Part shown: one piece after another, positions 34,777 through 61,930 of the stretch
How the letters are laid out: each line of letters starts with the position of its first letter
Position numbering within the stretch: position 1 is the first letter of the stretch
Source: Saccostrea cucullata
Taxonomy: Eukaryota
Assembly (NCBI RefSeq): GCF_032062105.1
Contig: NW_026930592.1
Span: 248,001-312,000 of the forward strand
Direction of reading: 5' to 3'
Length of the DNA stretch: 64,000 bases
Made by a program: the position numbers and the translations under genes
The notes under the pieces: model-generated
Database searches by the model: none
Told to the model about the DNA's origin: nothing
What the model saw: the letters and a program-made list of their open reading frames with translations, nothing else

Positions 34777-35821
34777 CGAGGGCCGTTTAAAAGTTACGCG
34801 GACTGTGCTATTATTTACTCTTTCAGACGTCATAAAGTTATGAAATTTCACAGAAATATGTATCTTAAAGCTTCCAATAAATTTTGGGCAAAATTTCTGC
34901 ATTTTAAAAAAATTCTACCAAAATTATTGCTGATGGAGAGGTATACGGAGCACGACAAAAAATTTGAAGCAAAAGCATGCGGAATCCAAAATTTAACTCA
35001 TTAATTTTCTACAATTCGCGATATTTTTCGACAATTTTCTCATATGTATCTTTAAATTGTTCTATTATTACGTAATTAGATATCTGACGTGATATTTGAA
35101 GTATTAACAGAAATATAGTAATTTTTCTCTGATGCGATTTCCGTGAAAACGTCTGTGAAAATGACGTCTCCTGAGTTGACGGCGCACCACACTTTCGTTA
35201 AATTCTGTGTAATGCTCGAGATATCGCCAACATAGATCCAAAATATGCATAATAAAACATGTAATAAACTAGGGTATTCGTTACATTCGTCCACAAATAG
35301 GAAACTGAAATTTTATACTGTTAGACCTCTGTAAAAAAGGCTATACGTGAGGACGGAAAGATTTTCGACGAAAACTTTTTAAGGACTGTAAAGAACGTGA
35401 TTGAGAGTCACCAATATCATACTATATCTAAAAAATACCTGCAGTTTTTGGTTTTAAAACAAAAAAAGAATATGTTAAACTTGTTTAATAGATTTTAATT
35501 TTGACAAGAAATGGTGTTTGGATGTTGAGTAGATAAGATAACTCAAACTGTACAGGTACTCCTGGGAAAATGTTGAGAAAATGAAAGCTCAATCACATAT
35601 TGTTGTATAATGCCTGTGACGTAGAAGATTTTGCTGCTCCTGACTTAATAATATGTCCTGAAAATCACTCAAAATTGATATCAATTTAGAAAATTTTGAT
35701 ATGAATGTTTGAAGACCATATAAGTAAAGATTCTTTTATATTATGTGTGACATTTTGCCCGATGATGTCGTCAAATATTTCTTCTGTGCAACAAGTCCGC
35801 GTAATTTTTGAACGGCCCTCG
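34777..35821. mobile_element. Non-autonomous mariner-like element
   Basis: TA-CGAGGGCCGTTTAAAAGTTACGCGGACT ... AGTCCGCGTAATTTTTGAACGGCCCTCG-TA. Confidence 0.88.
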
Positions 35822-35867
35822 TACATGAGGGCTTGTAATAAAACGTGTAGTAATAATTAAAATAATA

Positions 35868-36235
35868 ATACATTATATTATACTTTCATGTAAATTAATT
35901 GAATCTGATTGGTCGAGAAACATTTGTTAAAAAACACTATTACCCGCTGAATAATGAAGCCACGACTTCCAGCGTAGCAACAGTCAAGAGTGCTTGACGA
36001 CGGGTGATATTCCAAAAAAATAGCGACTGCGCAGAATTTATGCGCGCACGGTTCACTATTATATGTATTTGTATAAAACATTCAGTATAATATAATAAAT
36101 ATTGCATGTAGCTGAGTGTAACATTGAAAATTTTCACCCCAAGAAAACCATTGTCAACCTGCGCCTCGGTTGACAATGGTTTTCTTGGGGTGAAAATTTT
36201 CAATGTTACACTCAACTACATGCAATATTCATGTA
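35868..36235. mobile_element. Short repeat element with a near-perfect ~62-bp-arm hairpin (possibly a Crypton-type non-autonomous element)
   Basis: 36098-36229 is a palindrome with one arm mismatch and a short loop (around ctgcgcctcg). The family assignment is inference. Confidence 0.6.
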
Positions 36236-36570
36236 ATATAATTGTCAGTGTGTAACGTAAATATGATAAGTTTTTAATGAAAACAGTAAAAAATACTTTA
36301 AATATATATAATTAATTTATTTTGTTTTTTTTATTTTGATGCTCTGGAAATACTGTATGCCCCCCAAGACACACACAGAAAACGAACGAAGTACACATCT
36401 TTATTGTAATAAATAATTAATTTTAAAAATTTGATATCAAGCAAGTAGTAATTAATAAAGGATTTCAAGGACACCCTATGGGCAAGATAATTGCTTGACT
36501 AAAATGATACATTTTTGCATTTTTTGGTGACACAAAGAGCACATAAACATCAACTTTTTGCTTCAAAATC

Positions 36571-37895
36571 CTATTTCTCTGCATAGGGTATCAGAGGTGT
36601 TGTCTCTTCTTTATAAAACCTTTGATAGATATTTTTTCGGAAACCTTTATCAAACACACAAAAAAGAAGAAAATTTGCAAAGCCTTGGGAACTGTCTCCT
36701 ATGCAATGAAAGTACACCAGAACGGAGTCGACTTTGTTTACAGTTTGGTTAGTATAGGCTCCGATTATGGTGAAGATGAATCTCGTTGATCCCCAGATCC
36801 TGAGAAGATACAGTATGAAAGGCGTATAACAAAACCGTTCATCATCTTCCTCTACGATATGTGAATTCCAAAGGCTAGGAATATTGCGCCTTCTCTACGT
36901 GTAAGAAATTAAGTTATCTTTCAACAGGAAACAACAAGTTAATATATTATCAGTAAGTTTAAACATGATATCTTTAATCTAATGTACAAGAACATTTCGA
37001 ATATTTCTTACCCGTCGAAAATTTTCCACCATAAGTATAATATATAGCGTTCCTGCTATTAGATATGTTGCAAACTCCCACCCCTTCCCAGCGAGGAACA
37101 TGAATGTTGTATCTGCAGAGGTGATATTGGTTGCATTCACCTTAATCCAGCACCACTGACCACTGCCTATCATTGCATGGTCTTTGGTACCCCTATTGAA
37201 AGTCCCACGTCCAAGCTTCCCACATATAAGGGCAACAATAGAAATAATCACTGTGAATAAAAGGAACAAAATGCAGCGTTAAAGATAAAAAATGAATTGT
37301 TTTAGCTTTACAAGTAATTTTTAAAATAATCATGCCAATAATCAATGTAACAAGTTCAAGTTTTCAAAACAAATATCGATTTTATGTGATACCACGTTTT
37401 CAAGAGACAAAATATTGAAAAGCATTTGAAATTGAATATTGTTTCGTACATTTATTTTTATTTACACAAAGTTTTCTTCGAATAAATAAAATCTGAAGAC
37501 TTGCCTGGGACTATCCATCCTGCAACGTGATATAAAAAGATGATGTACTTCGAAATCCTCGTAATTTGTTTCATTAAACAAAAAAAGAGATGAATTGTAA
37601 TCACAGAAGTCCAAATAAATGACGAAACGCTAGAAAATGTTGTTATAAAACTCTGTACAATGCAAAGTGAATCTGTATCCATTCTCTTTTGTTCACTTAA
37701 TGTCAGATAGTTTGCGGTTCCAAAAACTGCTCCACCCGCTTGCAAAATGTCTGCAAATGAAAGGTATATCAACAGAATACGAACGAAATAGAAGCGTTTG
37801 ATGAAAGTATGTGACAAAATGAGGGTCACTCCTCCGAGAACAGAAGCAGTTCCACTGACCAATGTTACTACCGATATCAAAATATCTTCTCTCAT
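36571..37895 (-). CDS. GPR157: GPR157-like 7TM receptor, copy B (3 exons)
   Basis: Exons 37895-37505 (GC donor), 37250-37012 and 36894-36571 join in frame; close paralogue of copy A. Confidence 0.88.
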
Positions 37896-38626
37896 ATTTG
37901 CAAGTGAATTCAAAGTTCTTAAAATAAATGTCCCGAATTTTAATAGTTTTGTCTTTCTGTTGATAATATAAGCTTGTAGTTGAAGTGCACTACTTAACAA
38001 TAGTTCTCATTTGGATCGTGTCCTCCGTTGAGGGGTGAAAGTCGACAGGCTGAAATGTAGGGGGATGAAGAAAGATCACGTGCTGCTTCACTTTGATTGA
38101 CAATGATAAAAACAGCTGAAGTGTAAGTGACACTTGTCGGATAAAAAAAAATGAAGGTTAAAATATCTAAAATTTAATAATATAAAACAAAATGAATTTT
38201 TCAACATTATTTGTAAATCTTGTTATTATCATAGCAGTGTAGAAGGATGGTTTTAATTCTATATGAGGTGATCCAACTCGTACATGTAGATTCCTTTCAA
38301 AAGACGAAATTTTAATCAGAAACTCGAATTTGAAACATTCCCGTAAAAGAAGTTACATTGATAAAAAGATAATGGATAACAAAACTATTTATGTAAGTCA
38401 GGCGAAATATCATTTAAAAGGTCATTGTTTGTAATTAAGAAACAAATGTCCCAAAATACCAGTGAAGAGGAAAGAAGCTTGTACAAAAGAAAGCTTTTTA
38501 CTCATAAACAAGTTTCGAGATAAAAACATGTACATATTTTGACAGAAATGCCCAATGCTTTTTCGTTTTATTTGGGATCTTCTACCTATGTATCTTTCTA
38601 CTATATGTCTTATATATAGATTGATT

Positions 38627-40560: not shown

Positions 40561-41332
40561 CTGCCGGAAATTGGTAGTAAGAACTAGGTGCGCTTTGACC
40601 AATACATGGGGAGAGTATTGTAGCTCATTTCCTATAAAGTTAAATAAAGGGGGCGCTTTGATCAATATCAAAAATCTGTAAACGACTATTATTATTTGAA
40701 ATAAAGAACTTTTAGTTCGTCACGTCATCAAATCCTGTGAAGCCCGAAGGGCTTCTCAGTAGATTTGATCACGAACCAACTAAAAGCTCATTTCCCAGAG
40801 AACTTTTTAACATTGTTGTTTATTACTAATATTTACCTTTGAGATGCGAATAAATTTCCAAGTAAAATTGCATTTATTTCCCGAACGTACCGCCGTAATG
40901 CTATATTGTGACGCGCAATGACCTAGAAATTGTTTGGTCAAAGTTAGTTTACCTCGCTCCAACATTTGAATGTTTACATTCACGTTTAGCAGTCCAGTTC
41001 AGGAAATATCTGTATATACTAATAGTGAAAGAAAAATGATCGCTGCTGAGAATAATCTAACTATTTCATAAGTTCTTACAATATTTGAAGTCAAAAGCGG
41101 TGGAATCGCCTGTTTTAGATTACATTAATCCAAAGGAATTTCGGGTTAAAACGGTAAGTGCTGTTTTAGGCTAATTATAGTCTTCATAACTTGATTCACA
41201 TCATCAGAAGTTTATTGTACATCCAGTAATTGAAAAATATCCATATTGTTTATTATTTTATCTTTTTCATCGTTATTATATGGCAAGCCCTTTTACTATT
41301 TATTCGGAAAATAAATTTTTTCTTCAAATTAC

Positions 41333-41770
41333 AGAGATATCTCTCATTTTAGAGAGATATCTCTTAAAAAATAAAGATATCTCTCAACTTAAAGAGATAT
41401 CTCTTATTTCTAAGAGATATCTCTATAAGAAAGAGATATCTCTTAAAGTTAGAGAGATATCTCTTATACTTAGAGAGATATCTCTTTTACTTTAAGAGAT
41501 ATCTCTTTCTCCTTGAGAGATATCTCTTTCGTGAAAAGAGATATCTCTGAACGTTAAAGAGATATCTCTTTCACCTAAAGAGATATCTCTTTCACCTAGA
41601 GAGATATCTCTTTCACTTTGAGAGATATCTCTTTAAGTAAAAGAGATATCTCTCTAAGTTTATTTTAAGAGATGTCTCTCAAAGTGAAAGAGATATCTCT
41701 CAAAAGTGTCTACAAGAGATATCTCTCAAGCAAAAAGAGATATCTCTTTATTGCAAAGAGATATCTCTCT
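41333..41770. repeat. Left subterminal array, 21 copies of the palindrome AGAGATATCTCT
   Basis: GATATC cores from 41336 to 41760 (one GATGTC variant), spaced 19-21 bp with two 26-bp steps. Confidence 0.97.
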
Positions 41771-42450
41771 TCATTATTTTTATTTAAATTCCATTTGAAA
41801 TTACTTCTCCCTTTACCGGAAGTATTTCAAAACCTGAGAAAATTCGGTCCAGGGTCTGAAAGTGCTTGTCACGTAACTTGCGGGGTACCTCACTTCCGGG
41901 GTACCTAACACGTGGAGTTCTGTTATCGAGTTCAGCATGTTTCTGGTTTACGCAAAGCTTTCGGGGGAAAGTTAAATAGTTATCGACTTACGACGTCATA
42001 CCATAAAAACTTGGGTGCGAGCGTCCACCTTGGGTTCGATCGAAGTACAGGTAAACAAATCAGAGTGTCATCCGTTTCTTGTTTATTTTGAGGGTAGATT
42101 AGGTGTTTTATTCTCAACCGAATGAAATAGTTTTGTAATCATCTTTTGCCTTAATTTGTTAACAGAATTTTCTCGAATCCGAGGACAATAATGTTTTTAT
42201 CAGCTGATTGTAGAGGAGGAGTTTTGTCAGTGTTCAATGGGTACTAACGTCATATTGTGGCTGCATCACTTTTGTTTGGGTAAATATTTATTTAATATAC
42301 ATATTTTTCAGTAAAGTTTTACCTTTCGTATGTCTGTGGATTAACTTTTTGTGTATTAAATGTTTGTAGCAATTTAATTATGATCTATTGGAGTATTTCA
42401 CAAGATGTTCTGTTCATATTTTTTGCCCAAAGGGTCTGGGACTTGTTTCA

Positions 42451-43173
42451 GTACTAAATTTTTAACCCACAGTATACATGTAATAACACAAGGTATCTTA
42501 CTCCAAATTACACTTTGTGCCCCCTCCCTCAGAAACGCATTCATTTATATACACTTTCAGACGAAATGCACTGTCAAACTCTTTAATACGATTTTCTTCT
42601 ATGATAAATTATCTACACAACCATACATAGCATGCTTGTCTGTCTTTTTGTTTATCTCCGTAAACAGAGACAAAACTCTGCTTGCATAGTGGAAAAGTCG
42701 ACTCAACCATGGAACGGTATGTGCTGATCCCGCACAGAGATTTTGATTGGATAAAAATCTGTTTCTAAAATTACATCAGATAAACATCTTAATGTTTTCA
42801 GGGAAAATTAGACGTAAACAAGTTCTATTTACTCACTGCAATATTTAAACAATGGAATTGAATTTTTAAAACCACTGATTTTTTAATTTTGCTCTTTGCC
42901 CGAGACTAGAACATACCATTCTATGGTTGAGTTTGACTTTCCACCCAACAAGCAGAGTTTTGATGCTGATTACGGAGGTAAAAGAAAATAGAGACAAGCA
43001 TGCCATATATGGTTGTGTAGATGAATTATTGTAGAAGAAATAGGTATAAACAGTTTACTCATGCATTTCCTCTTAAAGTGTAAATGAGCACGATTTTAAG
43101 GGAGGGGGGTGCTCCGTGTAATTCGGAGTTAGATACCTTGTATTATTATACACTTTAGGTCAAAAATTTATTA
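42451..43173. mobile_element. Old foldback MITE with ~270-bp diverged arms
   Basis: 42451-42722 is an imperfect reverse complement of 42911-43173 (e.g. caaggtatcttactccaaattac vs gtaattcggagttagataccttg). Confidence 0.75.
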
Positions 43174-43321
43174 CAGAAGCTGCATTTAACAAACTTCAGA
43201 TCATTACATTAACATGCATGACCATATTTCTCACTAAAGAGACTGAGAGTATGTTCCCTATTTATAGAACATGGTTTTAATTAGGGATTTTGGTTAAATT
43301 TTCTGTCTGTTCAAATTCACC

Positions 43322-43590
43322 TGCATGGCGCAGTGGTTAGAGCGTCTGCTCTAGAGTCGCAAAGTAAGGAGTTGATCCTTACGTCGTGGGTTTGAATCCC
43401 ACTGTGGGATGTGGAAACTTGTCCTTGGGATGATACAGTATAAACCATGGCCCAATCTCACAGTAGGTATTGGCACTAAACAGATCCCTCCCTGCTCAAT
43501 GGCCCTGAGTGCCGAGCATAGGACAATTTTGCAGCTCTTAACCGGTGTTTCCATATGAGTGAAAAATTCTTGAGAGGGATGTTAAACAAA
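43322..43590 (+). mobile_element. tRNA-derived SINE
   Basis: A box TGGCGCAGTGG, B-box-like GGTTTGAATCC, and tail tgagtgaaaaattcttgagagggatgttaaac; other copies occur in the window. Confidence 0.85.
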
Positions 43591-44413
43591 TCTGTCTGTT
43601 GAATTTAGTCATTGATATTACACAATTGTATACATTAAAACTTATTTTATAGCAGAGGTACAAGAGAACCAGTAACACAGATAAAAGATGCAGTTGCTAG
43701 GAGATCCAAAGTCAGCAGCACCTAAGGCTATACTGACTTTGAATTATCAGCATCCAAAACAATGCAAATCAAATACAGGTATGAAATTGATGCAACAAAA
43801 TAAGTTCTAGGACAAATATAAAATTAATTTTTTGCAAGACATAGCATATCAAAAAATGACAAAAAAAGTCTGTGATGTCCAGAGATGCTTTACCCCCACC
43901 CCACCTTAAGGTTTAGACATAGACCCCTTTATTCAACTTTACTGTCATCTCACCTCACTATTAAAATGGGGTAAAATACCCTTGTTTACAGATTAAATGT
44001 ATAATAATTATATATATATGTATGGATTTTTTTTTACAAGATGACTAATATACTAGTCAACATTGACCATCTTTAAAAATGTTTGTTTGATGTACTCCTA
44101 CCCACTTTTATCAAGATTGGTAGGTAGGTATCGGAAGGTTTTTTTTTCTTTTGCCTTACAGTATTGAACAAATTGAAAACTGTCATAATTAAAAGCATGC
44201 ACATACTCAGAAATCTGTTGATGTTTCATTACTAGCTAGAAAAACTTTATATTTATAAATTGAAAAGCATCCTAAAAAAAATTGATACCTTATCTTTAAA
44301 ACATCTATGGAAATTAAGGTGGAAAAATTAAAAATTTTGAAGTGCCCAAAAATTGATTGCTAATGGGTAGGGGCCATTTTAACAGGTCGGTCAGAGTACA
44401 TCAAACAAATCTG

Positions 44414-44476
<63 letters not shown>

Positions 44477-44495
44477 TGTCGTCGTAGTCGTTGTC

Positions 44496-44531
<36 letters not shown>

Positions 44532-44542
44532 AAGAACCACTG

Positions 44543-44586
<44 letters not shown>

Positions 44587-44672
44587 GAGAATCAAGTTTG
44601 TTTAAATGAAGGGCCATGCCCTTTTCCAAGGGGAGATAATTATGAATTAGAGAAAAATTAATGGCATTTTTA

Positions 44673-44703
<31 letters not shown>

Positions 44704-45174
44704 GGAAAGACGAAAATCATGTGGAATCATCCTCAGGTAGTGTAGATTCAAATTTGTTCAAATGATGACCCCCGGGGCTAGGGTTGGGCCAAAATGGCCG
44801 ACCCAAGTTTTACATAGGAATATATAGGAAAAATCTTTAAAAATCTTCTTCTCAGGAACCACTGGACCAGGAAAGATGAAATTCATGTGGAATCATCCTC
44901 AGGTAGTGTATATTCAAGTTTGTTCAAATCATGACCCCTGGGGCTAGGGTGGGGCCAAAATGGCCCACCCAAGTTTTACATAGGGATATATCGGGAAACC
45001 TTTTAAAATCTTCTTTTCAAGCACTTCAAAGCTATGATTAGTGTTATTTATTGGGAATCATCCTCAGATAGTGTAGATTCTAGTTTGTTCAAATGATGAA
45101 CGCCCTGGGGGGGGGGGGGTTAAATTCAAGCCCGATGTGCTCAGGTGAGCACTGTGGCCCCTGGGCCTCTTGTT
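44414..45174 (+). mobile_element. Helentron-associated element (HINE) carrying ~166-bp satellite units
   Basis: 5' tttttagctcacctgagccgaaggctcaagtgagc, a (gtc)n microsatellite, ~166-bp repeats, and 3' gctcaggtgagc + hairpin ggcccctgggcc + tcttgtt. Resembles the oyster Cg170/HINE type. Confidence 0.9.
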
Positions 45175-45221
45175 TATTGTTGGCCTTGGAGGGGCACCCT
45201 AGATATGAAAATGCAACAAAT

Positions 45222-45654
45222 ATTTTTGTGCCTCCTTTGAAGAAGGGAGGGCATATTGCTTTGCTGCTGTCTGTCGGTCAGTCTGTAGGTCCATTTAGTG
45301 TCTGTTCATTTTCTTCACAACCATTGCACATACTGAAATGAAATTTGGTATACAGGTATATCAGACGAATATCTAGGTCAAGTTTTGTTTTGGGTATGAT
45401 CGTACCATTTTTGACAGAGTTATGCCCCTTGGACTTAGAAAAATTCCAATTATTTGCAGCTTCTTTTTATTTTCTTTATAGAGGTTGCACATATTGAAAT
45501 GGAATTTAGTACACAGATTAGTCAGATGAATATCGAAGTCAAGTTCTGTTTTGGATATGATCGCACCATAATTGACAGAGTAATGCACTTTTGGACTCAG
45601 AAAAATTCTAATTTGTGGGGGAGGGGGGCATAAGTGTTACAAACATCTCTTGTT
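45222..45654 (+). mobile_element. HINE-type element (related deleted copy on minus at 46488-46712)
   Basis: 5' ttttgtgcctcctttgaagaagggagggcata; 3' ggggcataagtgttacaaacatctcttgtt. Confidence 0.75.
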
Positions 45655-45835
45655 AATTAAAAAAAATTAAATAAAAATATTTTTTCTGTGTTTGTAAACA
45701 ACAATTTTTTTTATTCTCATTTTCTTTTAAAATCTTTGATAAAATTTAATGAAGAAAGTTAAGATTTGTATCAAATGAATGGATATTTGCAAGATGTATA
45801 ACTCATTATTTGTCAGGTACCTTAGTCCTAAATTA

Positions 45836-46016
45836 CAGTAAAACTTGGTTAGTACGAACATGGATATTGCAAATTCACAGATATAGCTAAGTTATCTTGG
45901 ATCCCTAGTTATATAAATTTTAAAAATATCTCATATGGATATAACAAATTATGGATATATATGTAGCAAAGTAATTTCATAGGTCCCATTGACTTCGTTA
46001 AAACTGAGTTTTACTG
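45836..46016. mobile_element. pogo/Tigger-type MITE
   Basis: TA-CAGTAAAACT...AGTTTTACTG-TA. Confidence 0.7.
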
Positions 46017-46822
46017 TATTATCAGTTCATGCACATACAAGTATGCAATAATTCAAATGACATGTTACAGAAGCTTGCTAAATTACAGGTGTCTGCACAT
46101 CATGCAATCTTAAGACAGTACTGGATGGTTTTGATTAAGAACTGATCCAGCATGAAGACCAGCCATGTGCCTCACCTGTCATGACATTATTTAGGTAAGT
46201 GTCCTTTGAAGCAAAGAATCTGACAAAGCAAACCCTTCATCTTAAAAGATTTACATTTAATACTTATTTGATTGGTAGTTTTGATTTTATTTTCTCTTAG
46301 GAAGCCTTTTATTTAGCATTTCTGAGTACTGGTATATGATTGCCATACTTTCCAAAACTTTTTTTTAAATGCTTTATTTTGAAGCTTTTCCTATATCCAT
46401 ATATACAAACGCATACCAAACAATTTTCACCCACTCACCACCACAATTACACACACTCACACAGTGCACTTTCTAAACTTCAAAATGACAAGAGATGTTA
46501 GATGTTTGTAAAACACTATGCCCCCCTCCCCCCACATTGGAATTTTTCTAAGTCCAAGGGCATAAATCTGTCAAACTTGACCTCTGATATACCCGTATAC
46601 CAAATTTCATTTCAGTATGTGCAATGGTTGTGAAGAAAATAAACGGAAACTAAATGGACCGACAGACAGCAGCAAAGCAAAATGCCTTCTCTTCTTTGAA
46701 GGGTGGCATAATAAATGTACATATATGTAAACATATGACAGTTAAACATATGATTTATCCAAAAACAAAACAGATGTACCAAAATATGTAGATATAAATT
46801 AACAAAAAAAATACAATTTTGA

Positions 46823-49800
46823 TTTTTATACGCCCGTCTTAAGACGGGTCGTATTATGTTATAGGCTTCATGTCCGTCCGTCAGTCCGTCTGTCCGTCTG
46901 TCCATTCCTGTCCGGCTCATAACTTGAATACTATTAGGCCTAGGATTATCAAACTTTGTCAACTGATACTTCTTGGGTAGACGGTGTGTCGCGCACAAAA
47001 AGTGGTGGGTAGACGGTGTGTCGCGCACAAAAAGTGGGTCGCTCTGACCTTTAATAAAGATGCTATAGCCAAATATGGAAAAATCCTGTCCGTCTCATAA
47101 CTAGAAAACTATTAGACCTAGAGCTTTCAAACTTGGCAAAAGTATACATCTAGAGTAGAAGGTGTGTCGCGGCCTATTTCAAGGTCACTGTGACCTTTAA
47201 TTAAAGTGATTTTTTTAAAAAACTAAGTTTTTTAAATTCTAAATTTCATAATCCTAAAAAATGTAAAAATATAGTTGTATCCTTATTAAAAGATGTTAAA
47301 TTAAGTAAAAACTTATTTTTTCATTATATACTTTACAGCAATCTGTAACAAATGTTTATGCTTTGAGAGGAATTCAGTTTGTCCCATGGGCATAATTATC
47401 AAGCACTGGTCAAGAAGAATTTCGATAGCAGAAATTTGCATGTCAAATTAGAGAGAAATTAATGAGTTTATTGTCAGGAGCTAAGAGCGTCTTTAGATCT
47501 GATGCTGAGTTATCTTAATTTATCCCTTGAGAGTTGGGCAAAAAGAAATGGCCTCATAGTTGCTTGTGTTAATTAAGAATTCTTGATGGCTAGTCCAAGA
47601 TCTTTCAATTGGTGTAATTAATTTAAACAAATTAATGTTTTAGTGTATGATTAAAACTAAATTAGTATTGTATAATATGATTAAAACTAATAATATATGT
47701 GTTCATTTGAAAAAAAAAATTATTTTTGCAACAAATATGCTATAAACAAATATGGAAAAATCCTGTCCAGCTCATAACTAGAACATTATTAGACCTAGAG
47801 CTTTGGCAAAAGTATACATCTAAAGTAGAAGGTGTGTCCGGGCCTATTTCAAGGTCACTGTGACCTTTAATTAAAGTGATTTATTTTTTTAAACTAAGTT
47901 TTTTAAATTCTAAATTTAATAATCCTAAAAAATGTAAAAATATAGTTGTATCCTTATTAAAAGATGTTAAATTAAGCAAAAACTTATTTTTTCATTATAT
48001 ACTTTACAGCAATCTGTAACAAATGTTTATGCTTTGAGAGGAATTCAGTTTGTCCCATGGGCATAATTATCAAGCACTGGTTAAGAAGAATTTTGATAGC
48101 AGAAATTTGCATGTCAAATTAGAGAGAAATTAATGAGTTTATTGTCAGGACCTAAGAGGTCTCTATAGATCTGATGCAGAGTTATCTTAATTTATCCCTT
48201 GAGAGTTGGGCAAAAAGAAATGGCCTCATGGTTGCTTGTGTTAATTAAGAGTTCTTGATGGCTAGTCCAAGATCTTTCAGTTGGTGTAATTAATTAAAAC
48301 AAATTGATGTTGTAGTGTATGATTAAAACTAAATTAGTATTGTACAATATGATTAAAACTAATTATACATGTTCATTGAAAAAAAAAATTATATTTCAAT
48401 TTTTATATATTTGCAACAATTTGCAGTCATGCCTCACTTAAAATTTTATAGTCTGAAGAATAATTAGGTCTTTCCACCTTTCTGTGGAAAGACCTATTGA
48501 TTTGCTTATGTTTATTATTATTCCTATTATTTTTCTTCCGCTGATTTTTTGTTTCGACATTTATCGAAAAGACTTTTTGTTCATCGTAAAGGTCTTTAAA
48601 AGTTATGAACAAATTTGACCCAACGCGTATGAACTATGACCCCTTTCGAAGTTATTGCCCTTTACGCAAGAAATGCTTGTTATCGCTACTCCTCCGAAAC
48701 CGTGAACAATAGAGGTATGAAACCTTCAACAATGTCTTCAACTACTTGAGGGGACTCTGGAATCTATTCATTGCGAAAGTATTCGAAAACCCCTTCAATG
48801 AGTTATAGCCCCTGATAGTTTTTGAATTTTACAAATAATTAAATATTTTCAAAATGAGAAGTTGTAGAGACTTGGGACCAACTGCATAAGATTAATTGAA
48901 CTTTGACCTTAAAATTCATGTAAAGGTCAAAGGTCAAGGCCATTGCAAAATTGAGAAATTAAGCTCTTTTTGTATCTTTTTTTGTTTTTTAACATATACA
49001 AACTGTATTAGCATCATTATTATGCACTTTTGAAACTATTTTAAAGATTTAATTCGTATCCCTTAAAATTGACCCTATTAAAAGTCATTGCCCTTTGTGC
49101 AAAAACCTTGTTATTGCTACTACTTCGAAACCGTAAACCGCAGAGACATGAAACCTTCCCTAATGTTTTAGACTCCTTGAGAAGACTCTGGAATCTATTC
49201 ATTGCGAAAATATTCGGTGACCCCTTCAATGAGTTATTGCCCCTGAAAATCTTTGAATTCTACAAATAATTAAAAATTATCTAAATGAGAAGTCGTAAAG
49301 ACATGGGACTAACTGCATAAGATTTATTGACCTTTGCTCATAAAATTCATGTAAAGGTCAAAGGTGAAGGTCATTCAAAATTGAGAAATTAAGCTCTTTT
49401 TATATCTTTTTTGACTTTTAACATATACTTAATGTCTTTGCATCATTAATATGTACTTTTGAACCTATTTCAAAGATTTCATTCTTGTCCCTTAAGATAG
49501 ACCCTATTAAAAGTTATTGCCCCTTTTGCAAAAAACCTTGTAATTGCTACTGCTCCGAAAAAGTAAATCGTAAAGACATGAAACCTTCACTTATGTCTTA
49601 TGGGACTTAAGGCACAACTTTTATGATCAAGTGCGAAGGGATCTGGTGACTCCTTGAATGAGTTACTGCCCTTTGATTCTTTTGTGCTTACCGTGAAAAC
49701 ATAACTTTAAAACTATACGTCATAGAGACGCAAGGTTAATTACAATGTGACCCTTGACCTTTGATCTTGAAAATAATTTGAAGGTCAAAGGTCATGGTCA

Positions 49801-50270
49801 GCTCCAAATTTTGAATATTTTCATTTTTTTCTTCTTTCAAGCCATTCCTGGTTTCTTTTTGATGAAATTTAATTTTAAAGAGATAAATATTAAATGAAAT
49901 TGAAATTCAAAGAAGGTGGAAAGACCTCTTATTGTTCTGTGAACAATAAGTCTCCTAGTTTATGTTTGATTTTTGACTAGCATTTCCATTATTTCATAAA
50001 ATATGCAATAAACAATTTTAAGCTGCAGATCGATGGATATTTGTTATGCTCTAACATAGTTTAGAAGAATATGATGTTATTATTTGTTATAATCAATCCC
50101 TACACTGTAAAGTCTCTTAGAGATGTATGATAAGAAATGGAAATTAGATAATTGAAATTTGTGTCAATCTGTTAATCAAGGCTACCTGATTTTCTTTCAT
50201 CTTAACCAATTCATGATTATTGAATAATAAATGACGGGCGTATCATGCTGTGGCAGGGCACTTTATTTCA
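46823..50270 (+). mobile_element. Large HINE with a ~677-bp internal tandem duplication and a nested HINE
   Basis: 5' tttttatacgcccgtcttaagacgggtcgta plus (gtcc)n; 3' gacgggcgtat at ~50233. 47070-47746 is duplicated at 47747-48420. Confidence 0.8.
48463..49960 (+). mobile_element. Nested HINE with ~420-bp tandem units
   Basis: 5' ttaggtctttccacctttctgtggaaagacct; 3' ggtggaaagacct + hairpin cttattgttc-tgt-gaacaataag + ctagtt. Confidence 0.82.
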
Positions 50271-50419
50271 TCACTTGTTGTACACATTATCATACAGGGC
50301 CCATTTACTGAGTATTTTGTCCTTACATTGAAAAAAAAATTCACAATAATTTTCTATGTTTCTGTAATACTTAAATAACTTTATTGCATCAATAAATAAT
50401 GGCTTACTATCTTGTGATC

Positions 50420-51610
50420 TAGAATATTAACTGAACTGTTTTGCAACTAATAAAAAAAAATTTTCTAAACAACTTCCTTCTACTGGGAATATTACCAAGT
50501 AAAACAGTTCTTTTTCATATTTTGTAATCTATTTCAATGACACTAAACCATTGTACAAATTCATTCCAAAATTCTGTCACATTTATATTCACAATCATAA
50601 AATAAGTGAATTATTGTCTCTCTTTCAATATTACAGAATGTACATACACTATTTTCTGACAGCTTGACTTTATGGAGAAAGGAGTTGGTAGCAATATAAT
50701 TCATCAGTAATCGATATTGAAAATAAATTATTTTTATGCCCCGCCATGAATATGGCTGGGGCATATAGTGTTTGTCATGTCCGTCTTTCCGTCCTTCCGT
50801 CACACTTTGCGTTTAGCTCTGTTCAAAGCTCATTTTCAAAGAAACTATCCAAGATAATTATTTTCATCAAACTTCATAGGCTGATAGATATTGATGAGAG
50901 CTGAGCAACTGCATCAACATTCTTTGACTTTGACCTTGACCTCACTTTTCTTAAATTAGTGTTAAACTCAGTTTTAAAGATACCATTGATTCAAGATATT
51001 TTTATCAAACTTCATATGTTGATACAGTGTACTTACTGATGAGAGCTATTCAATTGCCTCAATAATTTTTACCTTGACCTTTCCTTTGGCCTCACTATTC
51101 CTAAATTCGTTTCAAACTTTATATGCTAATACATACTGATGAGAACTATTCATTTGCATTAACATTTTGACCTTGATATTTCATTTGACCTTGGCCCCAC
51201 TTTTAACAAATTGTGATTAAGTTAGTTTTAAAGAAACCATTCATTATATTATTTTTCAAATTTTATATGCTGATACATAATGATGAGAGCTTTTCAACTG
51301 CATTAACATCTTTGACATTGGTCCTTCCTTTGACCTAAGACCTCATTTTTCTTCAATTGGTGTTAAAACTTCATATGCTGATGCATACTAATGTAACCAG
51401 TTCAACTGCATCACTTTTCAAGATATTCTAAAATTTCAAACAGTTACAGAAATTCAAATTTTCATGTTGCATTACTGATATACCCTTGGCGGGGCATTCA
51501 TGTCCTATGGACATATTTGTAGTTGTCTCTTTGAGAATGATGATGCATTTACGAAGAAGATTTCCATTCTTTTTCTGAGATTGACTCATCTAGTAAAGTT
51601 TCCCACTTTT
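50420..51610 (-). mobile_element. L1/Tx1-type LINE 3' fragment (zf-RVT) split by a HINE
   Basis: FQYRLLMNYIATNSFLHKVKLSENSVCTFCNIERETIIHLFYDC has the CxxC...ET..HLF..C motif; upstream KWE...W remnant at 51530-51610. Confidence 0.7.
50731..51524 (+). mobile_element. HINE-type element
   Basis: 5' tttttatgccccgccatgaatatggctggggcata; 3' ggcggggcat + hairpin atgtcc-tat-ggacat + tagtt; internal ttgacctt repeats. Confidence 0.8.
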
Positions 51611-51611
51611 C

Positions 51612-52331
51612 TTTTTATGTGCCCGGATTCGAGGTGTATATTGCTTTTGTCCTGTCTGTTGGCAACTTTAACCTCTGCCTTAACTTTTGAACCATGAGAG
51701 AGACTTCATATTTAATATGCATACTCCACTAATTAACTTCTTTCAAAAGACACCAATGTCAATGACTTGTGTCCTTGACTGTGACCTATATGCTAAAATA
51801 GGTAACTGTATACAGGGAAATTTTCCCCCCGTTTAATTTTTCGACCCTTTCGCCCCAGTCTGGCGTGGGCGAATTTAAAACGGGGCGAATTCAGAGTAAA
51901 CTGTATATCTTAAACATAAATATTTTTGGCGAATTTAAAATGGGCCAAACTTGTTTTCAGTTGTGTAAGGGTGAAAATAATATGGGGCGAAAATAACCCT
52001 GTATACAGTATTTGAACTTTCGCTATAACTTTTGAATCATTAAAGATAGAGACATCATATTTTGGATGCCTTCTCCACTAATTAAGCTCTTTTGAATGAC
52101 ACCAAGGTCAATGACCTTGTGACCTTTACTGTGATTTAAATGCTATAAATACCATTTTGAACTTTAGCAATACATTTTGAACCATTAAAGATAAAGACTT
52201 CATATTTGATATGCATACTCCACTAATTAAGCTCTTTCAAATGACACCAATTTCAATGACCTTGTGACCTTGACTGTGACCTACATGCTAAAAATAACTT
52301 TTTCGAATTTGTTGTCACCGGGCGCAAAGTG
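51612..52331 (+). mobile_element. HINE-type element containing a MITE (51806-52008)
   Basis: 5' ttttatgtgcccgg; 3' ccgggcgca...gtgtttcacaaacaaatcttgtt. The inner MITE has ctgtatacaggg / ccctgtatacag ends. Confidence 0.72.
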
Positions 52332-54741
52332 TTTCACAAACAAATCTTGTTTTGATGTAGTTCAATTTTTGTAGAATTTTATGTTACATATAAAAGCCAA
52401 AAAAAATATTTAAAATCAAATCATTTTTATTTCAGTACTTTGTGACAGTGGGAAGATAGAATTTTAAAAATGGACATGGCTCTATATTACTGCATCAGAG
52501 ATTAATCCAGGTTTACTTATAATTTGAAGAAAAACAGTCAAGCATCATTTGGAGCTACGTATGTCACTGCCTTAACAATATGCCGGCTTATATAACCAAC
52601 CAAGCACAGTGACCAGTTGTACCTATGATGTTGGAAGAGATCCTGAAAAACCTTCCAGTACACTCTGCAAAGAAATAAAAATTCAAATGACTTGTATCAA
52701 CACTTTTGTACTTCTTCTGGCTTGTATTTTCAGTAATCATTAGCCTTTAGCTTCCTTCAAACAAAATTGCATAAGTACTAACTTGCAGGTGTAAAATGTT
52801 TGAAACAGTTTGCTTGACCCAGAGGAAATTCTTTGCCAATCAGCAGTGGCATGAGCAGTTGATTGATGTCACAGTTCCACCGGCAAAGTATTTGTAGCTG
52901 CATGAATGGTGCCATATAAAACACTTTTAACAAGAACCTGGAAACATCCTAGAAGTGAGCATCTACAAGAAATTAAGTGAATGCTTTCTTGAATGTTAAC
53001 AATGTTATAAAATGCTTGTGTACATCCTATATATATACAACAAATTACACATGTAACAACCAAATACACAAAAATTAAACTTCCTTAAATTTGTTCTTGA
53101 TGTTTATTTATAGTGTATTAAAATAAGCATCCAATATTTGTCTTGTTATACTGAAGGATTGTTAAGAAAATGTCGTTCGTTGAAACAAATGTGCAAACAA
53201 GTTACATTCTGCACAGTTAGCAATTTTTGTGGAGAACCTATCAACATATATTTTCAATCGTTGGGATGTAATGTTAGGCAAAGAGTAGGAGAATTATACT
53301 TGTTAACAAATAATTTTTACCGATCAAATTTCAAATTGATAATTTAATAAGAAAGCAATATGACAAATTTAACTAGCATTATGGTCCATTGATTTTAACA
53401 CCATGGTGTGTGAGCTTTTGTGAACTTGATACTGAACTAGTAAGTTTGAAATATTGAAGTAAAGAAAAGAAAATTTTTCCTGTACCTGATTTAAAATGAG
53501 TCCCAGCATCAACTACTTGGAAGTTGCCACACTCTTCATGAGTGTAAGAATTACTGGATATTCCTCAGTAACAGATCTATACTGGTACATGTAAATGAAT
53601 GACACATTCAGTCGAAGCATTGTCCCTTTTTCAGTATCTCCTGGATCCCTGTAAAATATATGATGACAAAAGTAGATAAAATGTTCCATCATTGAATGAT
53701 GAATGTCCTATGGACCCAGTGCGGGCCTGTTGGGAGACACCATTTGATTGTTCTAGCAATGTGTCTGTCTCTTAATTGTATGAGAACTAGTATTTGGGAA
53801 GGGGGTCATAAGGCTTTACATTGTGTTGTTTAACGTCCCACAGTTAATATTGAAAATGAGTATATACATCCCTGTGTATATGAAAGAAGTAATGTTGGAC
53901 GTTTTTATTTCTGGATTATTATTTAACAAATTAAAGAAGAACATTCTATCAGGATTATGTTTAATCGACGTAGTAATCAACCCTGTATTCCCGTGATTGA
54001 TGAATTTGGTTACATGCATTTCCTATTTGTTTTATTGACTTTGCATTCTACATCTCGACCTCAGCTGTCCCGTAAGCTAAATCCAGGCACATAGCAACAG
54101 GGGGAGGGGGGGGGGGAGGGAACGGCGCCTTGTCCCCTTTTTTTCCCAACAATACCTCTACTATTGAGAATGTGCTTTGAATAGTTTGTTGCCACACACC
54201 CTACTTCTTACCACAGTATAGAATAACAGTATAGTGATATCATGGAAATGGGGAAATGTAGTATTTTATGCAATAAAAATTGGAAGTGAAAGGAATATTT
54301 GGTCTTGAAAAAAGTTGGCACTAACCCCCCCCCCCCCCCCCGGAAATAGGATTATCGAGTTTGGTCAACTTTTACTGGTAAGTATAAAAAAAACAAATCT
54401 CTCTGGTTGCCCCCCCTTTCAAAAACGATGCTTTGTGCCTGAAATCAATATATGGGACCAATCTTTGGGGAACGTTTTAGTTTGAAAACACTATTTCAAC
54501 TTACTTTTATGCTTTAAAATGGCTCGTGACCCAGTTGGAATAGCTTGTATGTACTGTATGTACGTCATTTACAAAAACAATAACGCGATTAAACGTTGTT
54601 TACCTGTATCAATCAATCCATTTTCTCCTCTTCCTCTTCTTTTCAATAATCAAAAGCGAACGACTTAACAAACATTACTTCCTGTTTCGCTTTCGTTTTC
54701 AACGGGAGAACTAATTATGTTATTTTAAGGGTGATTTGAAA

Positions 54742-55057
54742 AGAGATATCTCTTTCATTAAAAGAGATATCTCTTTAGCTTAGAAAGATATCTCTTTTTG
54801 AAAATCTATAGAGATATCTCTCTAACTATGAGAGATATCTCTTTTAAACTTGTTAAAGAGATATCTCTCTAACTTTAAGAGATATCTCTCTCGCTGGAAG
54901 AGATATCTCTCTAGCTTATAAAGATATCTCTCTTACAAAAAGAGATATCTCTCTTTCAAAAAGAGATATCTCTTTTGTTTAAAGAGATATCTCTATTAGT
55001 CAAAGAGATATCTCTACAGGCTAAAGAGATATCTCTCTATGCTAGAGAGATATCTCT
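54742..55057. repeat. Right subterminal array, 15 copies of AGAGATATCTCT
   Basis: GATATC cores from 54745 to 55049, spaced 21 bp with two 26-bp steps. Confidence 0.97.
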
Positions 55058-55583
55058 CAAACTGAAAGAAAAATTTATTTTTCGAATAAATAGTAAAAGG
55101 GCTTGCCATATTATTAACTTAGAAATACTCCAAAACAAGTTGCACCGTGACAGAAATATGTAGACAAAATATCACCTCGCTCTGTGATTCAGTCGCGCTA
55201 TGACATCTGACCCCCAAATAACATTCACACCGAATTGAACATAATTATTTTCTCTTCAATGGGTTCATCTAAGATAGACATTTGCAAATGTAAATATTTG
55301 ATATTTTCATCAATAATTGTAAATAGACATAAAATTACTTGCATTAGGTGAAAACTTAGTTTTTTTTTGATAATTTGCATAAGAATTTGAATAAGGGCGA
55401 ATAGTTAAAATAGACATACATACTTGCTAACTTGCATTAATAAAACGAAAGAAGCAAAATGATCTAAATTAAAAATATATAAAAAATCGTTTAGCTATAT
55501 TATCAGTTATATTTTCTTATAATATTAAGTTGTATTTCCACTGACGAAGGTATGTGACTTAATGAATTCTAATCCAACAAGAT

Positions 55584-57069: not shown

Positions 57070-58684
57070 CTAAGACTGTAATATACTTTGATAACTCGCT
57101 GAATCTGAAAAGGGTGCTCTCAGCAAATCATAATTTCCCTGTCTATTGCAGCATTTAACGATCATTTCACGATATTTTCTCCTTATATTTTTGTCAAGCA
57201 AACAAAACAGAATAAAGTTTCCTAGCGCTTGGGCACTGTCCCCTGCACAATGAAAATAACTGAGAATATTGTCTACGTCCATTGCTTTTCCGGATTTTGT
57301 GTTAGAAATCTCAATGAAGAATCTGATTGTTCCCCAGAATCGAAGTAAATAGAGAATGAGCCACGTGAAGCAGAATCGCTCATCTTCATTTCTTAGAGTC
57401 TCGCCGCCCACATCCCTCCAACAGTAGCTTTTATTTTTTTGTCTCTAAAAATTAAAATAACCTTCTTTATTGCAAACTTAACACATAAAAATAACTTATA
57501 GAAACGTTTTATAAAGCTGGAACATCTCACCTCTATGTACGTGTTAATTTTCAACATCATGTATATAGAGAACGATAGGACGTATGTAAGAAGTTCCCAG
57601 AATTTCCCGGTCATTAACATCAGCACTATTTCCTGTGTGTGGATTTCAGCGTCGTCTATCTTTATCCAGCACCACAAACCTGTCCCAGCTTTTTTTCCAT
57701 TGTGATCTCGACCAAGCTTGTCTTCAGCCAGGACAGGAATACAAATAATGGCTGAAATCAACAAAATCAAAGCAGAAGACTCGCATTTACATGTTATAAC
57801 AGTGATTGGTTAATAGTAATATAGATATTTACATTTTTGAATTAACATCATTGTCTGAAAATTTGATAAATGATTCTATAATCCTGCTCTTATCCTACAG
57901 GTAAGTTGCAATGAAGGACGTTGCAATTTGATTTTCAAATTTGTAATCTTTTAAAATCAAATAATATTTGTTTAAAATCATTTACAAATTATACAATTTG
58001 TCTCCCAAGCATACGTTCTGTTTGTAACCATGCAGTAAGTACTTCATGTATTCATACGCCCAATAGAGTTAGGTTATGAGATCTTGTCCATTTTGTGACA
58101 GGAAACCTTATATTTTCCAAAACTTTTTAACTCAATAAATTTCTAATGATTTTTAAATGTTGGAGTCATCAAATTTTGCGTTTGAAAACCGAAGAAGAGA
58201 AACGATAGACAGGTTCGAAAAGTAATACATATTCCGCGCATGTATTATATGATATACTAGTAGTTGAAAATAGCATACCTGGGATGGCCCAACCTGAAAA
58301 ATGATACATGATCTTTAGAAATCTTTTCCTTCGAAAATCTCTCTGTGTCCGTATTAAAAGGTACAGATGAACTGCAATAATAGATGTCCACGCAAAAGAA
58401 CTAAGGCTTGAAAAGGTCGTGATAAAACTTTGAACTTCGCATAGTGTGTCTGTCTTATTTCTGTGCTGAGAATCTAAAAGAAGGAAATGAACAGTGCCAA
58501 TAATATAACCCGATGCTGTAAAAATATCAGCAATAGTAAGAAAAACAAGGAGTTTTCGGACAGAGGTTTGGAATTCTGGTATCTTGAAGTAAGTTAACAA
58601 AAGTGCAAATCCTCCAGTAATCGAAAGAGAAGCACTGATCAGCGTAATGGCCGCCAAAGTTGCATCCTTGGTAGAGAGATCCAT
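57070..58684 (-). CDS. GPR157: GPR157-like 7TM receptor, copy C
   Basis: Exons 58684-58279, 57751-57531 and 57444-57070 join in frame; motifs RKLLVFLTIAD, GLWCWI and MTGKFWELLTY. Confidence 0.88.
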
Positions 58685-59125
58685 AACTTCACTTTCTGTG
58701 TATGTTGTACATTGAAATAATGGTTGCAATTTGTTATGGTCAAGTGATAGATAAAACATTGATAAATAGAGGAAGTATTTATATGAATGTTTGTAATCTA
58801 TTGTGATCTAAATTTTGATATTACTGACTGATGACATATACAAACACGTTAGCTAACTGTATAATTAGAATTTGTACAATTACATGTTATGCATGGTTAC
58901 TTACATTTATCAATTTATTAACATTGTATCATTTGATCATTTTAAGATCCAACGATTCAATGAGATATAAGGAACTGTAATCATGCTCAAAATTTATTGA
59001 AACATAGAAATAAGGAACAGAGAAAACAGACCTCTAAAAACATCAGAGGTAGAATTATGTAATTTCCAAGGAGATGTTAGCATTAAAAATATCGTAATAA
59101 AATAACAATTAAAGACAATTATGTA

Positions 59126-60739
59126 TTAAGTTGAAGCAATGGATTGATGAGGCACAGAGAGAGTTGGATTTTCTTCATGTTCCTCTTGTTGTTCAAACCT
59201 ACGAAAACACACCGACATGTACTTTCCCCGAATTTCTTTATCCAGAAGACAAAATAGAATAAAATTTCCCAAAGCATGCGAGCTATCACCAACACACTGT
59301 AGGTATAACAGGAAATCATAATCATGACTGAGCAGACGACTACTTTGATTGGATATTACAAAAAAGAACCGTATTGTTCCCCAGAACCTCAGCAAGTACA
59401 ATGGCAGCCAAATGTAACAGAATCGTTCGTCCCCCCGTCTAAGTGAAGCTGGATTCACCACCATTCTACTCCAACGATACGTCTGATTGGTTTCTCGCTG
59501 AAATAGAAATAAAATTTATTTTATCATTCACATTTTTAAAAGAATGTAGGTTGTTTTACTTATTTTTATATTTTTCGTAAAATGATCGTTGGTCGTGATA
59601 AATAAATTATAAATTACTTTGTTTAATGTTTCATGTAATAATTATTAAACTGAATTCTATTTATTTTTTGTTAAGGACAGCTAGCTTTTGAAAAGAGATG
59701 AAGTCACTTAAATATATTACTAAAAGCAACAATAATTGATCAAAGTCCACGAGTAAAAAATCATTTTTCTTGAATTTTGTATTTTTATTAACATTTTACA
59801 GAGGATTGGAAAATTTATTTTTATTTAACTTAGAAATCAATGAATACTTACTTCAATGTAAGCAGTAATTTTCAAATGCATGAATACTGCTAATGACAAT
59901 ATGTAAGTCAGAATCTCCCATAACTTTCCGGCGAGTAGCATGATCCCTCGATCTGTCGCCTGAATATCAGTTCTATTCAGTTTAATCCAGCACCAGGATC
60001 CTGTAGTTATATTATAGCTTTCTCCTAGACGATCATTCACCAACAAGATCACAGTTACCAGACCTACACACAGAAGTTAAAATAAAAAAAGATATTCTGT
60101 AGGCTTAATATACACATTTCAAATTTCATTTTTTCATATATATTTAAAAAAAAACGAGAATGCGCCATATATAATTGCTTTTTTGCCAGTAAAATCATCA
60201 AGGCTTCCTTTTCATTAAATCTGTAAATGCAGTATGTCAGAACTTTATCAAGCAAATATGTCTCCATTTTGTTAGCACTTCGTGAGTCAATTTTAGTAAA
60301 AACTTGTAGCTTACTAAATAGACTTACCTGGGATAAACCAGCCTATGATGTGATACAAAACCTTTAAGCAGGTATTTCTTTCCCAGTCTTTTGTTGTTCT
60401 GACCAGTAAAAATAGATGCACCGTAATGATAGAGGTCCAAGCAAACGAAGACATGTTGGAAAACGTCGTCACAAAACTCTGAGCGGTACAAAGGGTGGTG
60501 TTCCAAGTGTGTTCACTTATGTTATCTGATCTTATATTTGAAATCATGTAATTGAAAGTCCCACAGATGTATCCCAAGTCTGTTATGATATCAGCAATTG
60601 TGAGAAAACATAAAAGGTTTCTGAGCATGTAATGTAAATTATCCATTTTATACTGTGTTATTAACAGTCCTACCCCTCCTAGCAGGGATGCCAAACAGCT
60701 AACCAAAGTTATCACAGCAACTTTTTCCCAGTATTCCAT
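59126..60739 (-). CDS. GPR157: GPR157-like 7TM receptor, copy D
   Basis: Exons 60739-60328, 60063-59852 and 59497-59126 join in frame; motifs GSWCWI and LLAGKLWEILTY. Confidence 0.88.
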
Positions 60740-61084
60740 CTCGCAAGGTTTGAATAAGAAAACAGCAGAGGTTGTAAAAATTGCTGAGTAAAATTGATTT
60801 ATTAGCCACAGTAACTTTTATCAGTATGATAAAGAAAAGACAGCTTTATCCCAAGGTAAGTTTTTTGTGCGCAGTATCTACTTTAATTTATTGATATTAC
60901 TGACTGTGGATCAAAGGTATATGTATTTACCTCTAGAGTTTTGGTGATAAAAAACAATTCAAACCATATTCTATCACTAGTCGTCAGAAATTCTTTTAAT
61001 AACATTTTAATTTTGAGGACATTAAACGACATTTTTTTTTTTTAAATTCCATCTATTATATTTAGAAAAAGCAATAACCATGGC

Positions 61085-61930
61085 AAATGCAGAGAGAATC
61101 CGTATCTTTTTCTCTTTCGTTCACATACTCTCAGATAGTTTGTGGATCCCAAAACTTCCCCGCCAGCTTGCAAAATGTTAGCAAATGAAAGGTATGGCAC
61201 GCCAAATTCACAAAATGAGCTAAACATAGTTTCATAGTCGATAAACTAGGTTTATCGGTTGTAAACTATAGTTTACGGACTGTAAACTATAGTTAACAAC
61301 GTTAATCTATATTTTACATCTGTAAACCATAGTTAATGCTATAATCTATGTTTCAGAACCGTAAACTATTCTTAACACTTAAAACAATCATTTGCGATTG
61401 CAAAACAGATTATCTGATAAATACAGTTTCACGATTTGTAAACCATGGTTTACAACTCTCAACTATAGTTAACGATCTGATAAATATAGTTTCACGATTT
61501 GTGAAACTATGATTAACAACTCTTAACTGTAGTTTACGATTGTAAATTATAGTTTACAAACATGAATCTATGTTTATGAACAAAATCTATTTTATTACAG
61601 ACAGATAAACTTAGATTAGCATTCGTTAACTATAGTTAACAACCGTTAAATATAGTTTTACAGATTAAAACTATAGTAAACGAATTGTTAACAATAGTTC
61701 ACGGTTTGTAAACTATAGTTTACAGTCGATAAAGCTAGTTTATCAACTGTGAAACTATATTTAGCTCATTTTTGTGAATTTGACGTGCCATAGAAAGGTA
61801 TATCCACAGAATACGAACGAATAGAAGCGTTTGATGAAAGTATGTGACAAAATGAGGGCCATTCCTCCGAGAACAGAAGCAGTTCCACTGACCAATGTAA
61901 CTACCAATATAAAAATATCTTACCTCCTAT
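61085..61930 (-). pseudogene. GPR157-like pseudogene (exon 1 of a copy-B paralogue)
   Basis: 61793-61930 and 61085-61192 align to 37670-37895. Start codon lost, MITE insertion, exons 2-3 absent. Confidence 0.85.
61193..61792. mobile_element. 600-bp IS3EU-like MITE
   Basis: TATGGCACGCCAAATTCACAAAA... / ...TTTTGTGAATTTGACGTGCCATA. The 6-bp TSD GAAAGG is confirmed by the uninterrupted paralogue at ~37759. AACTATAGTT-type motifs recur every ~20-21 bp. Confidence 0.92.

Follow-up and report, generated by a model that had tools for sequence, protein, structure and literature searches.

Introduction

IS3EU transposons are entered in Repbase, yet their structure and function have, by one account, largely gone unexplored (PMC11934779). 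The present analysis concerns a 13.8-kb element with ends of the IS3EU/GingerRoot type, located in a 64,000-nucleotide stretch of Saccostrea cucullata DNA (contig NW_026930592.1, positions 248,001–312,000; hereafter, the window). The element is a real DNA-transposon insertion, both arms of which carry arrays of a regularly spaced palindrome. It has no detectable transposase gene and, in the reading that we favor with some reserve, was moved in trans by the transposase of a partner element, via a protein coating the phased-palindrome arms, probably recently and together with most of its cargo.

According to the accessible portions of the reports cited here, IS3EU elements have TA..TA ends and usually a 6-bp target-site duplication (TSD), and 17 of the 45 IS3EU families in Repbase are autonomous (PMC10045372). 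The fungal members are 8–12 kb in size, possess TAYGG..CCRTA ends, a terminal inverted repeat (TIR) of more than 30 bp and a 6-bp TSD, and carry opposed transposase and alpha-kinase genes; four published fungal tips start with TATGGAGCCC, TATGGAGGCC, TACGGAAGCCC and TACGGCAAGG (PMC12730594). GingerRoot copies are described as reaching 12.9 kb, and TSDs of 6 bp are reported to be made by Polinton/Maverick and long terminal repeat (LTR) elements as well. Styx/REP9 of Zymoseptoria resembles the element studied here in being IS3EU-related and in having a 6-bp TSD and a 43-bp TIR, and differs from it in being a fungal, 7.9-kb element with four genes, for which the accessible text mentions no palindrome arrays; Styx/REP9 copies with a dead transposase are still mobilized in trans (PMC10853768, PMC8232023). 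In Muta1, a Type 2 foldback element of the MULE superfamily, the arms are likewise built of a repeated 12-bp motif with variable linkers, and a larger number of subterminal repeats leads to more transposase binding and excision (PMC5499845).

Element Ends, Target Site and Family Assignment

The outermost 28 bp of the element are identical in inverted orientation (41279–41306 and 55083–55110), and the match can be prolonged to 41 of 42 bases. At up to three mismatches, the 28-bp TIR has no other matches in the window, and two matches were obtained in none of 100 shuffles. The TIRs are flanked on both sides by the hexamer TTATTA, for which the probability of a chance match at the local base composition is about 4 × 10−4. 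Among the 1663 TAYGG..CCRTA pairs present in the window, exact 6-bp flank repeats were found in three, two of which have TIRs, namely the 13.8-kb element and a smaller, 600-bp element (Table 1). An earlier examination of the letters alone (hereafter, the sequence-only reading) had proposed a perfect outer TIR of 28 bp, an exact 6-bp TSD, palindrome arrays in both arms and a position inside an array of G-protein-coupled receptor genes, and all four proposals were confirmed. The insertion is intergenic within an array of seven-transmembrane (7TM) receptor genes, with 7TM family matches to Pfam in four of the nine flanking receptor-exon frames scanned. By length, about 7.7 kb of the element are nested repeats and 6.2 kb are ends and backbone (bounds set by eye); with this share of nested repeats in 13.8 kb, and with published ranges close by, the size is not exceptional.

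With respect to its termini (TATGG..CCATA), a TIR of more than 30 bp, a 6-bp TSD of free sequence and a size of several kb, the element is similar to IS3EU/GingerRoot transposons, among which non-autonomous families are common, and its tip closely resembles the four published fungal tips. It differs from them in lacking the DDE gene (autonomous members encode an IS3-like DDE transposase and a second protein) and in having arms of 15–21 phased perfect palindromes; by eye, no such arms are present in the first 400 bases of the four fungal IS3EU consensus sequences, as given in the accessible part of the report (PMC12730594). Arms of tandem subterminal repeats are a feature of Type 2 foldback elements (MULE/P type), in which the TSD is 8–9 bp, as in Muta1, in contrast to 6 bp here. 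Regarding Polinton/Maverick and LTR elements, no PolB or integrase matches were found in Pfam, and the ends are inverted. As no transposase was found by any route, the element is filed as non-autonomous. Structurally, it is a variant within a transposon group that is known but has been little studied. The ends, the TSD and a second element with the same tip (see below) support the IS3EU assignment made in the sequence-only reading, and membership stays provisional, because no partner transposase has been tied to the element.

Table 1. Coordinates of the 13.8-kb element, its parts and related features (window positions, except for L001).
Feature	Position	Strand	Remarks
Whole element	41279–55110		13.8 kb
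Left TSD	41273–41278	.	TTATTA
Left TIR	41279–41320	+	Starts TATGGCAAGCC; 28 bp perfect, 41/42 extended
Left array	41333–41768		21 palindromes AGAGATATCTCT; intervals from tip 20 (×4), 19, 21 (×10), 26, 21, 26, 21, 21
Promoter-like, CpG-rich stretch	41781–42199	+	CpG o/e 1.24; near 42051 a strong splice donor facing inward; a decayed gene may start here
Old MITE	42481–43149		64 of 286 arm columns mismatched (22%)
tRNA-headed SINE	43313–43589	+	Directional CpG loss; 3 related copies outside element
HINE-like repeat	44417–45172	+	166-bp tandem units; bounds by eye
HINE-like repeat	45226–45645	+	Bounds by eye
Small MITE	45834–46018	.	TACAGT..ACTGTA ends; by eye
HINE-like repeat	46488–46712	-	Related to 45226 repeat, 12 of 175 columns differ
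HINE-like repeat	46823–48420	+	GTCY microsatellite; 671-bp tandem duplication, 33 of 665 columns differ
HINE-like repeat	48466–49945	+	431-bp units
LINE 3' fragment	50200–50720	-	zf-RVT
HINE-like repeat	50732–51522	+
HINE-like repeat	51614–52352	+	145-bp units; contains small MITE from near 51805
Backbone stretch with DNA-level homologues	52750–53069	.	Two other assembled contigs (P0001, P0002)
Less CpG-depleted inner right end	53950–54736	-	CpG o/e 0.71; near 54603 a strong donor facing inward; a second, convergent decayed gene may start here
Right array	54742–55057		15 palindromes AGAGATATCTCT; intervals from tip 21 (×9), 26, 21, 26, 21, 21
Right TIR	55069–55110	-	Finishes GGCTTGCCATA
Right TSD	55111–55116	.	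TTATTA
7TM receptor gene array	32816–38006 and 57070–63223	-	Tandem; 7tm_2 and cAMP-receptor-like Pfam matches
Second window element	61193–61792		600 bp; TATGGCA..TGCCATA ends, TSD GAAAGG
Separate element	19874–22111		2.2 kb; CCCTAAC..GTTAGGG ends, apparently 2-bp TT duplication
L001 element (metagenome contig)	1461–1790		330 bp; tip TATGGCAAGCC, TSD GGATAC, array

Palindrome Arrays and Elements with the Same Plan

The two arms together contain 36 copies of a 12-bp palindrome with no empty slot, and only 4 of the 432 core bases are changed. The spacers are all distinct within each arm (20 of 20 in the left and 14 of 14 in the right one), and are alike at about four of nine bases (~44%). Of the 34 intervals between the copies, 25 measure 21 bp, while 20 bp was found in four cases, 19 bp in one and 26 bp in four, and no interval of 22–25 bp is present. 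When the intervals are counted from the inner end, the 14 of the right arm are all identical to those of the left arm, including the run 26-21-26; the shared position of the two 26-bp steps has a chance of 1 in 91, calculated for a pattern that was noticed after the fact. In the register of shared intervals, spacer identity between the arms (0.47) lies within background, and satellite expansion by slippage was rejected, since the spacers are at background identity. Cores and spacing have been conserved and the letters of the spacers have drifted, a pattern that points to selection on protein binding rather than to satellite slippage or conversion.

The DNA helix has 10.5 bp per turn. At this value, 21 bp correspond to two helical turns, 26 bp to two and a half, and the run of 26, 21 and 26 bp to seven. 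Judging by their sequence and spacing, the palindromes look like family-specific, helically phased protein-binding sites. The arm arrays belong to the ends of the element and not to satellite cargo.

In comparison with Muta1, which has an 8–9-bp TSD, linkers of 3–4 bp and arms that are 97% identical (PMC5499845), the repeat of the present element is itself palindromic and follows steps of 21 or 26 bp, and its arms share spacing and not spacer sequence. An Rfam scan of the left array gave only below-threshold hairpin matches. No description of such arrays was found in the literature, although Repbase entries, subscription papers and full supplement sequences may already show them.

When metagenome contigs were scanned with a pattern of three cores that contained no letters of the TIR, one locus (L001) was obtained, where a 330-bp element consists only of ends plus array. 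Its 11-bp tip is identical to that of the 13.8-kb element, its cores read AGATATCT in 12 of 13 cases, and its intervals measure 20–21 bp in 11 of 12 cases and 26 bp in the remaining one, with none of 22–25 bp. The host contig is GC-richer than the window, and the flanks of this locus (44% GC) have nothing in common with the window except for one 29-bp low-complexity match. The 600-bp element of the window contains 19 loose copies of a AACTATAGTT-type palindrome at steps of mostly 20–23 bp; its array is more decayed, and its palindrome differs from that of the 13.8-kb element. The three elements share the tip, the TSD length and the array plan, with two different cores among them, and phased palindrome arms common to different hosts are a new, testable feature. 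Array scans of viral contigs yielded nothing, and two loci from scans of viral and prokaryote collections (L002, L003) were discarded as chance pattern matches with two cores each and no array.

The separate 2.2-kb element of the window, which we take to be EnSpm-like, is bounded on either side by 10-bp ACTATAGTTA repeats, in which the palindrome of the 600-bp element recurs, and has a 30-bp array in its interior.

Nested Repeats and Decay of CpG

The cargo was identified without a repeat library, and the HINE-like repeats were read by eye from their T-rich ends. The inventory given in the sequence-only reading, i.e., an old miniature inverted-repeat transposable element (MITE), a short interspersed nuclear element (SINE), about seven HINEs and a fragment of a long interspersed nuclear element (LINE), is borne out with the HINEs assigned in this way, and two small MITEs are additional to it. 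GTCY microsatellites and tandem units also form part of the cargo. The tRNA score of the SINE is 26.8 bits, which is below the 29-bit cut-off. Tandem units inside the element differ by 5–15%. Like the oyster Cg_HINE family of non-autonomous Helentrons, the seven nested repeats have central units in tandem and, in part, GTCY microsatellites, and HINEs have been noted inside other elements (PMC7492417). This resemblance to oyster repeats in itself suggests a bivalve host. Here the repeats are cargo only, and they were assigned by eye and not by comparison with a published consensus.

Over the 500 sites of TSD, TIR and palindrome cores, 4 changes were counted (95% upper limit, 1.8%), none of them in the 68 sites of TSD and TIR. 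The ends have thus decayed by less than about 2%. Inside the element, the observed/expected ratio of CpG (CpG o/e) is 0.41 compared with 0.82 in the flanks (134 CpGs seen, 267 expected), and is as low as 0.18 in hand-picked backbone. The drop starts just inside each arm, so that a step is seen at both ends. The nested SINE exhibits directional CpG loss, 9 versus 1 against a copy located 0.5 kb outside the element (p = 0.02) and 8 versus 1 against a second outside copy, but only 3 versus 2 against the third and most diverged one.

Interior CpG loss combined with nearly undecayed ends makes it likely that the element moved with most of its cargo already inside. The simplest reading would be a long residence in a methylated setting elsewhere followed by a recent jump into the CpG-rich receptor cluster, and we regard this sequence of events as likely. 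The earlier proposal that the element may have moved as one composite unit gains indirect support from the contrast between a CpG-decayed interior and ends that have hardly decayed.

Another CpG-poor stretch, probably a methylated gene body, lies at positions 1–7000 of the window (0.11–0.43 in 1-kb bins), and a 54-bp tandem array is found within it at 3932–4245.

Coding Capacity and Nature of the Backbone

In agreement with the sequence-only reading, no transposase ORF was found by ORF listing, Pfam, motif scan, exon chaining or protein searches. According to the ORF list, the sole stop-free frame of at least 120 aa inside the element lies in a nested repeat. When six-frame read-through translations were compared with Pfam, the single significant match was zf-RVT, in 1 of 30 frames, and 30 shorter frames gave no match. 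The best backbone matches to five short IS3EU motifs are at background level, and two higher ones are situated inside nested repeats.

Just inside each arm, an identical 11-base donor-like word faces inward (42046 on the plus and 54608 on the minus strand) and occurs nowhere else in the window. The CpG-richer inner ends and inward donors fit two convergent genes, of which the two CpG-richer stretches listed in Table 1 may be the starts; the exon candidates were read by eye and partly chosen by GC content. The wider similarity of the two inner ends fails to reach significance (scores at least as high in 20 of 200 shuffles), and ETS-like and E-box motifs, which are frequent throughout the window (40 and 9 sites, respectively), carry no weight.

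A deep protein search of the region 52462–54039, which took one of its six frames, gave a single match (P0001), and 96 of 102 residues of P0001 are alike in its cluster mate P0002. Between 52750–53069 and these homologues, 36 of 43 residues are alike in the first stretch, and three frame changes occur within about 310 bp. Both entries match two window frames in turn, cover AT-rich sequence and match no named protein. Based on the alternation of frames and the AT-rich sequence, P0001 and P0002 were interpreted as gene calls made on homologous DNA and not as genuine proteins. On the opposite strand, one frame could be open along most of their length. A search for P0002 among viral contigs returned no locus. 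The alignments show that the backbone is not unique, and the homologues do not reveal what it encoded. In three DNA runs of one sample, 0.22–0.25 of the words of 52380–54740 were recovered (others, <0.2), which could be due to a common nested repeat and is not treated as evidence.

Proposed Mechanism and Alternative Explanations

In the mechanism that we propose, the TATGGCA tip would very probably act as the cleavage and integration end, with 6-bp staggered integration having made the TSD. Each 12-bp palindrome would probably be occupied by a dimeric DNA-binding domain belonging to the transposase or second protein of a partner element; with sites two turns apart, a one-sided filament would form and help to pair ends lying 13 kb apart, while the two 26-bp steps would rotate one pair of sites onto the opposite face and then restore the phase. 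The 6.2-kb backbone may be what is left of an element rich in introns that was methylated at another location and gathered about 11 insertions, and its ends could have been kept intact since only copies with working ends went on moving. As for the backbone itself, we incline slightly to the view that it is the element's own decayed gene pair.

More speculatively, animal IS3EU elements may use a two-part address, in which a shared TATGGCA catalytic tip is combined with a family-specific palindrome repeated along a helical ruler of 21-bp steps, with 26-21-26 as its fixed face switch. By polymerizing on this ruler, a protein encoded by the element would allow gene-less 14-kb carriers to go on jumping and to ferry transposon stacks and long-methylated DNA into unmethylated gene clusters. 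A tip and core common to two distant hosts would then point to deep conservation or horizontal transfer of the protein-site pair; taken jointly, these two ideas are tentative. The invariant palindrome, the 21/26-bp spacing and the swap of palindromes between families provide a binding target for a first test of end recognition, and the array signature is usable for finding autonomous partners. Apart from this, large non-autonomous elements that contain nested repeats are commonplace, and a CpG step at both ends can serve as an indication of large gene-less elements carrying older transposons between loci.

Several points weigh against the proposed movement in trans with cargo. The divergences of the cargo cannot be taken as strict minimum ages: differences between MITE arms, tandem units or SINE copies may already have existed at the source, and the inside SINE is about as far from an outside copy (0.16) as two outside copies are from one another (0.14). 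In oyster, DNA transposons and SINEs are described as methylated above background in place (PMC4378273). Seven of the 13 one-kb bins with CpG o/e below 0.45 lie outside the element, the Poisson test of the CpG deficit ignores clumping, and the decay clock assumes that the cores are without use to the host. Within the window, no autonomous partner, no paralogous empty site in the receptor array and no second full copy was found (the 28-bp TIR has only its two matches). No DDE or HECT remnant was detected with Pfam, the five short IS3EU motifs or three word-index searches, and no candidate backbone exon has an open frame in any phase. In addition, both arms fold strongly as single strands, as any palindrome array does.

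A Pack-type capture, by which the ends enclosed a piece of a host gene body, methylated and with HINEs, SINE and MITEs in its introns, and moved with it as a unit, would make the backbone host DNA. GingerRoot elements do carry host exons and introns, in 22 of 77 copies (PMC6839031), gene bodies gather methylation in oyster (PMC4378273), and the lack of transposon protein remnants is in line with such an origin. We nevertheless consider it doubtful: both inner ends are CpG-richer than the middle and have inward-facing donors, as two convergent native genes would, the captured pieces in the accessible text measure just 84–1654 bp (PMC6839031), and the homologues of the backbone, for which no named protein was matched, differ by frame changes.

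Instead of being read by an element-encoded protein, the arrays might serve a DNA-binding factor of the host, with a promoter, insulator or anti-silencing role, or might form hairpins in single strands. The arms adjoin promoter-like DNA, the palindrome of the 600-bp element also stands in tandem at both ends of the unrelated CCC..GGG element, and the folding energies of the arms are -141 and -90 kcal/mol versus -39 and -29 kcal/mol for shuffles. This explanation is unlikely, given that the same core accompanies the same 11-bp tip in a distant host, a different core goes with a slightly different tip, and the 330-bp element is only ends plus array. Furthermore, hairpins would favor complementary spacers and not helical intervals, and outer spacer bases pair in just 9–13 of 25 cases.

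An old insertion that gained its cargo and CpG decay in place, with ends kept by host selection or conversion, would be compatible with the methylation of transposons in place reported for oyster (PMC4378273), with the loose dating of the cargo and with the fact that no other copy sharing the cargo was seen in the window. Such a history is quite improbable in view of the few changes in the TSD, TIR (0 of 68) and cores (4 of 432). Conversion would have homogenized the spacers too, which are at background identity, and host selection on 36 sites plus the TSD is unlikely.

It is highly improbable that the element is a cryptic autonomous one, with its transposase split into short exons by large repeat-filled introns: splice-like signals for two convergent units exist, but no backbone exon candidate is open in any phase, neither a DDE motif nor a Pfam match was obtained, and homologous copies differ by three frame changes in about 310 bp. 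Finally, a chance placement of two small, mutually unrelated elements or half-elements on either side of 13 kb of host DNA is hardly credible, for although small members of this plan exist (the 330- and 600-bp elements), each arm has an outer tip only, the TSD matches, the arms share the interval series, and the CpG step coincides with both ends.

Other Features of the Window

Elsewhere in the window, a stop-free frame of 510 aa was observed at 10583–12115 on the plus strand, and a Pfam match identified a C-type lectin domain exon at 28034–28450.

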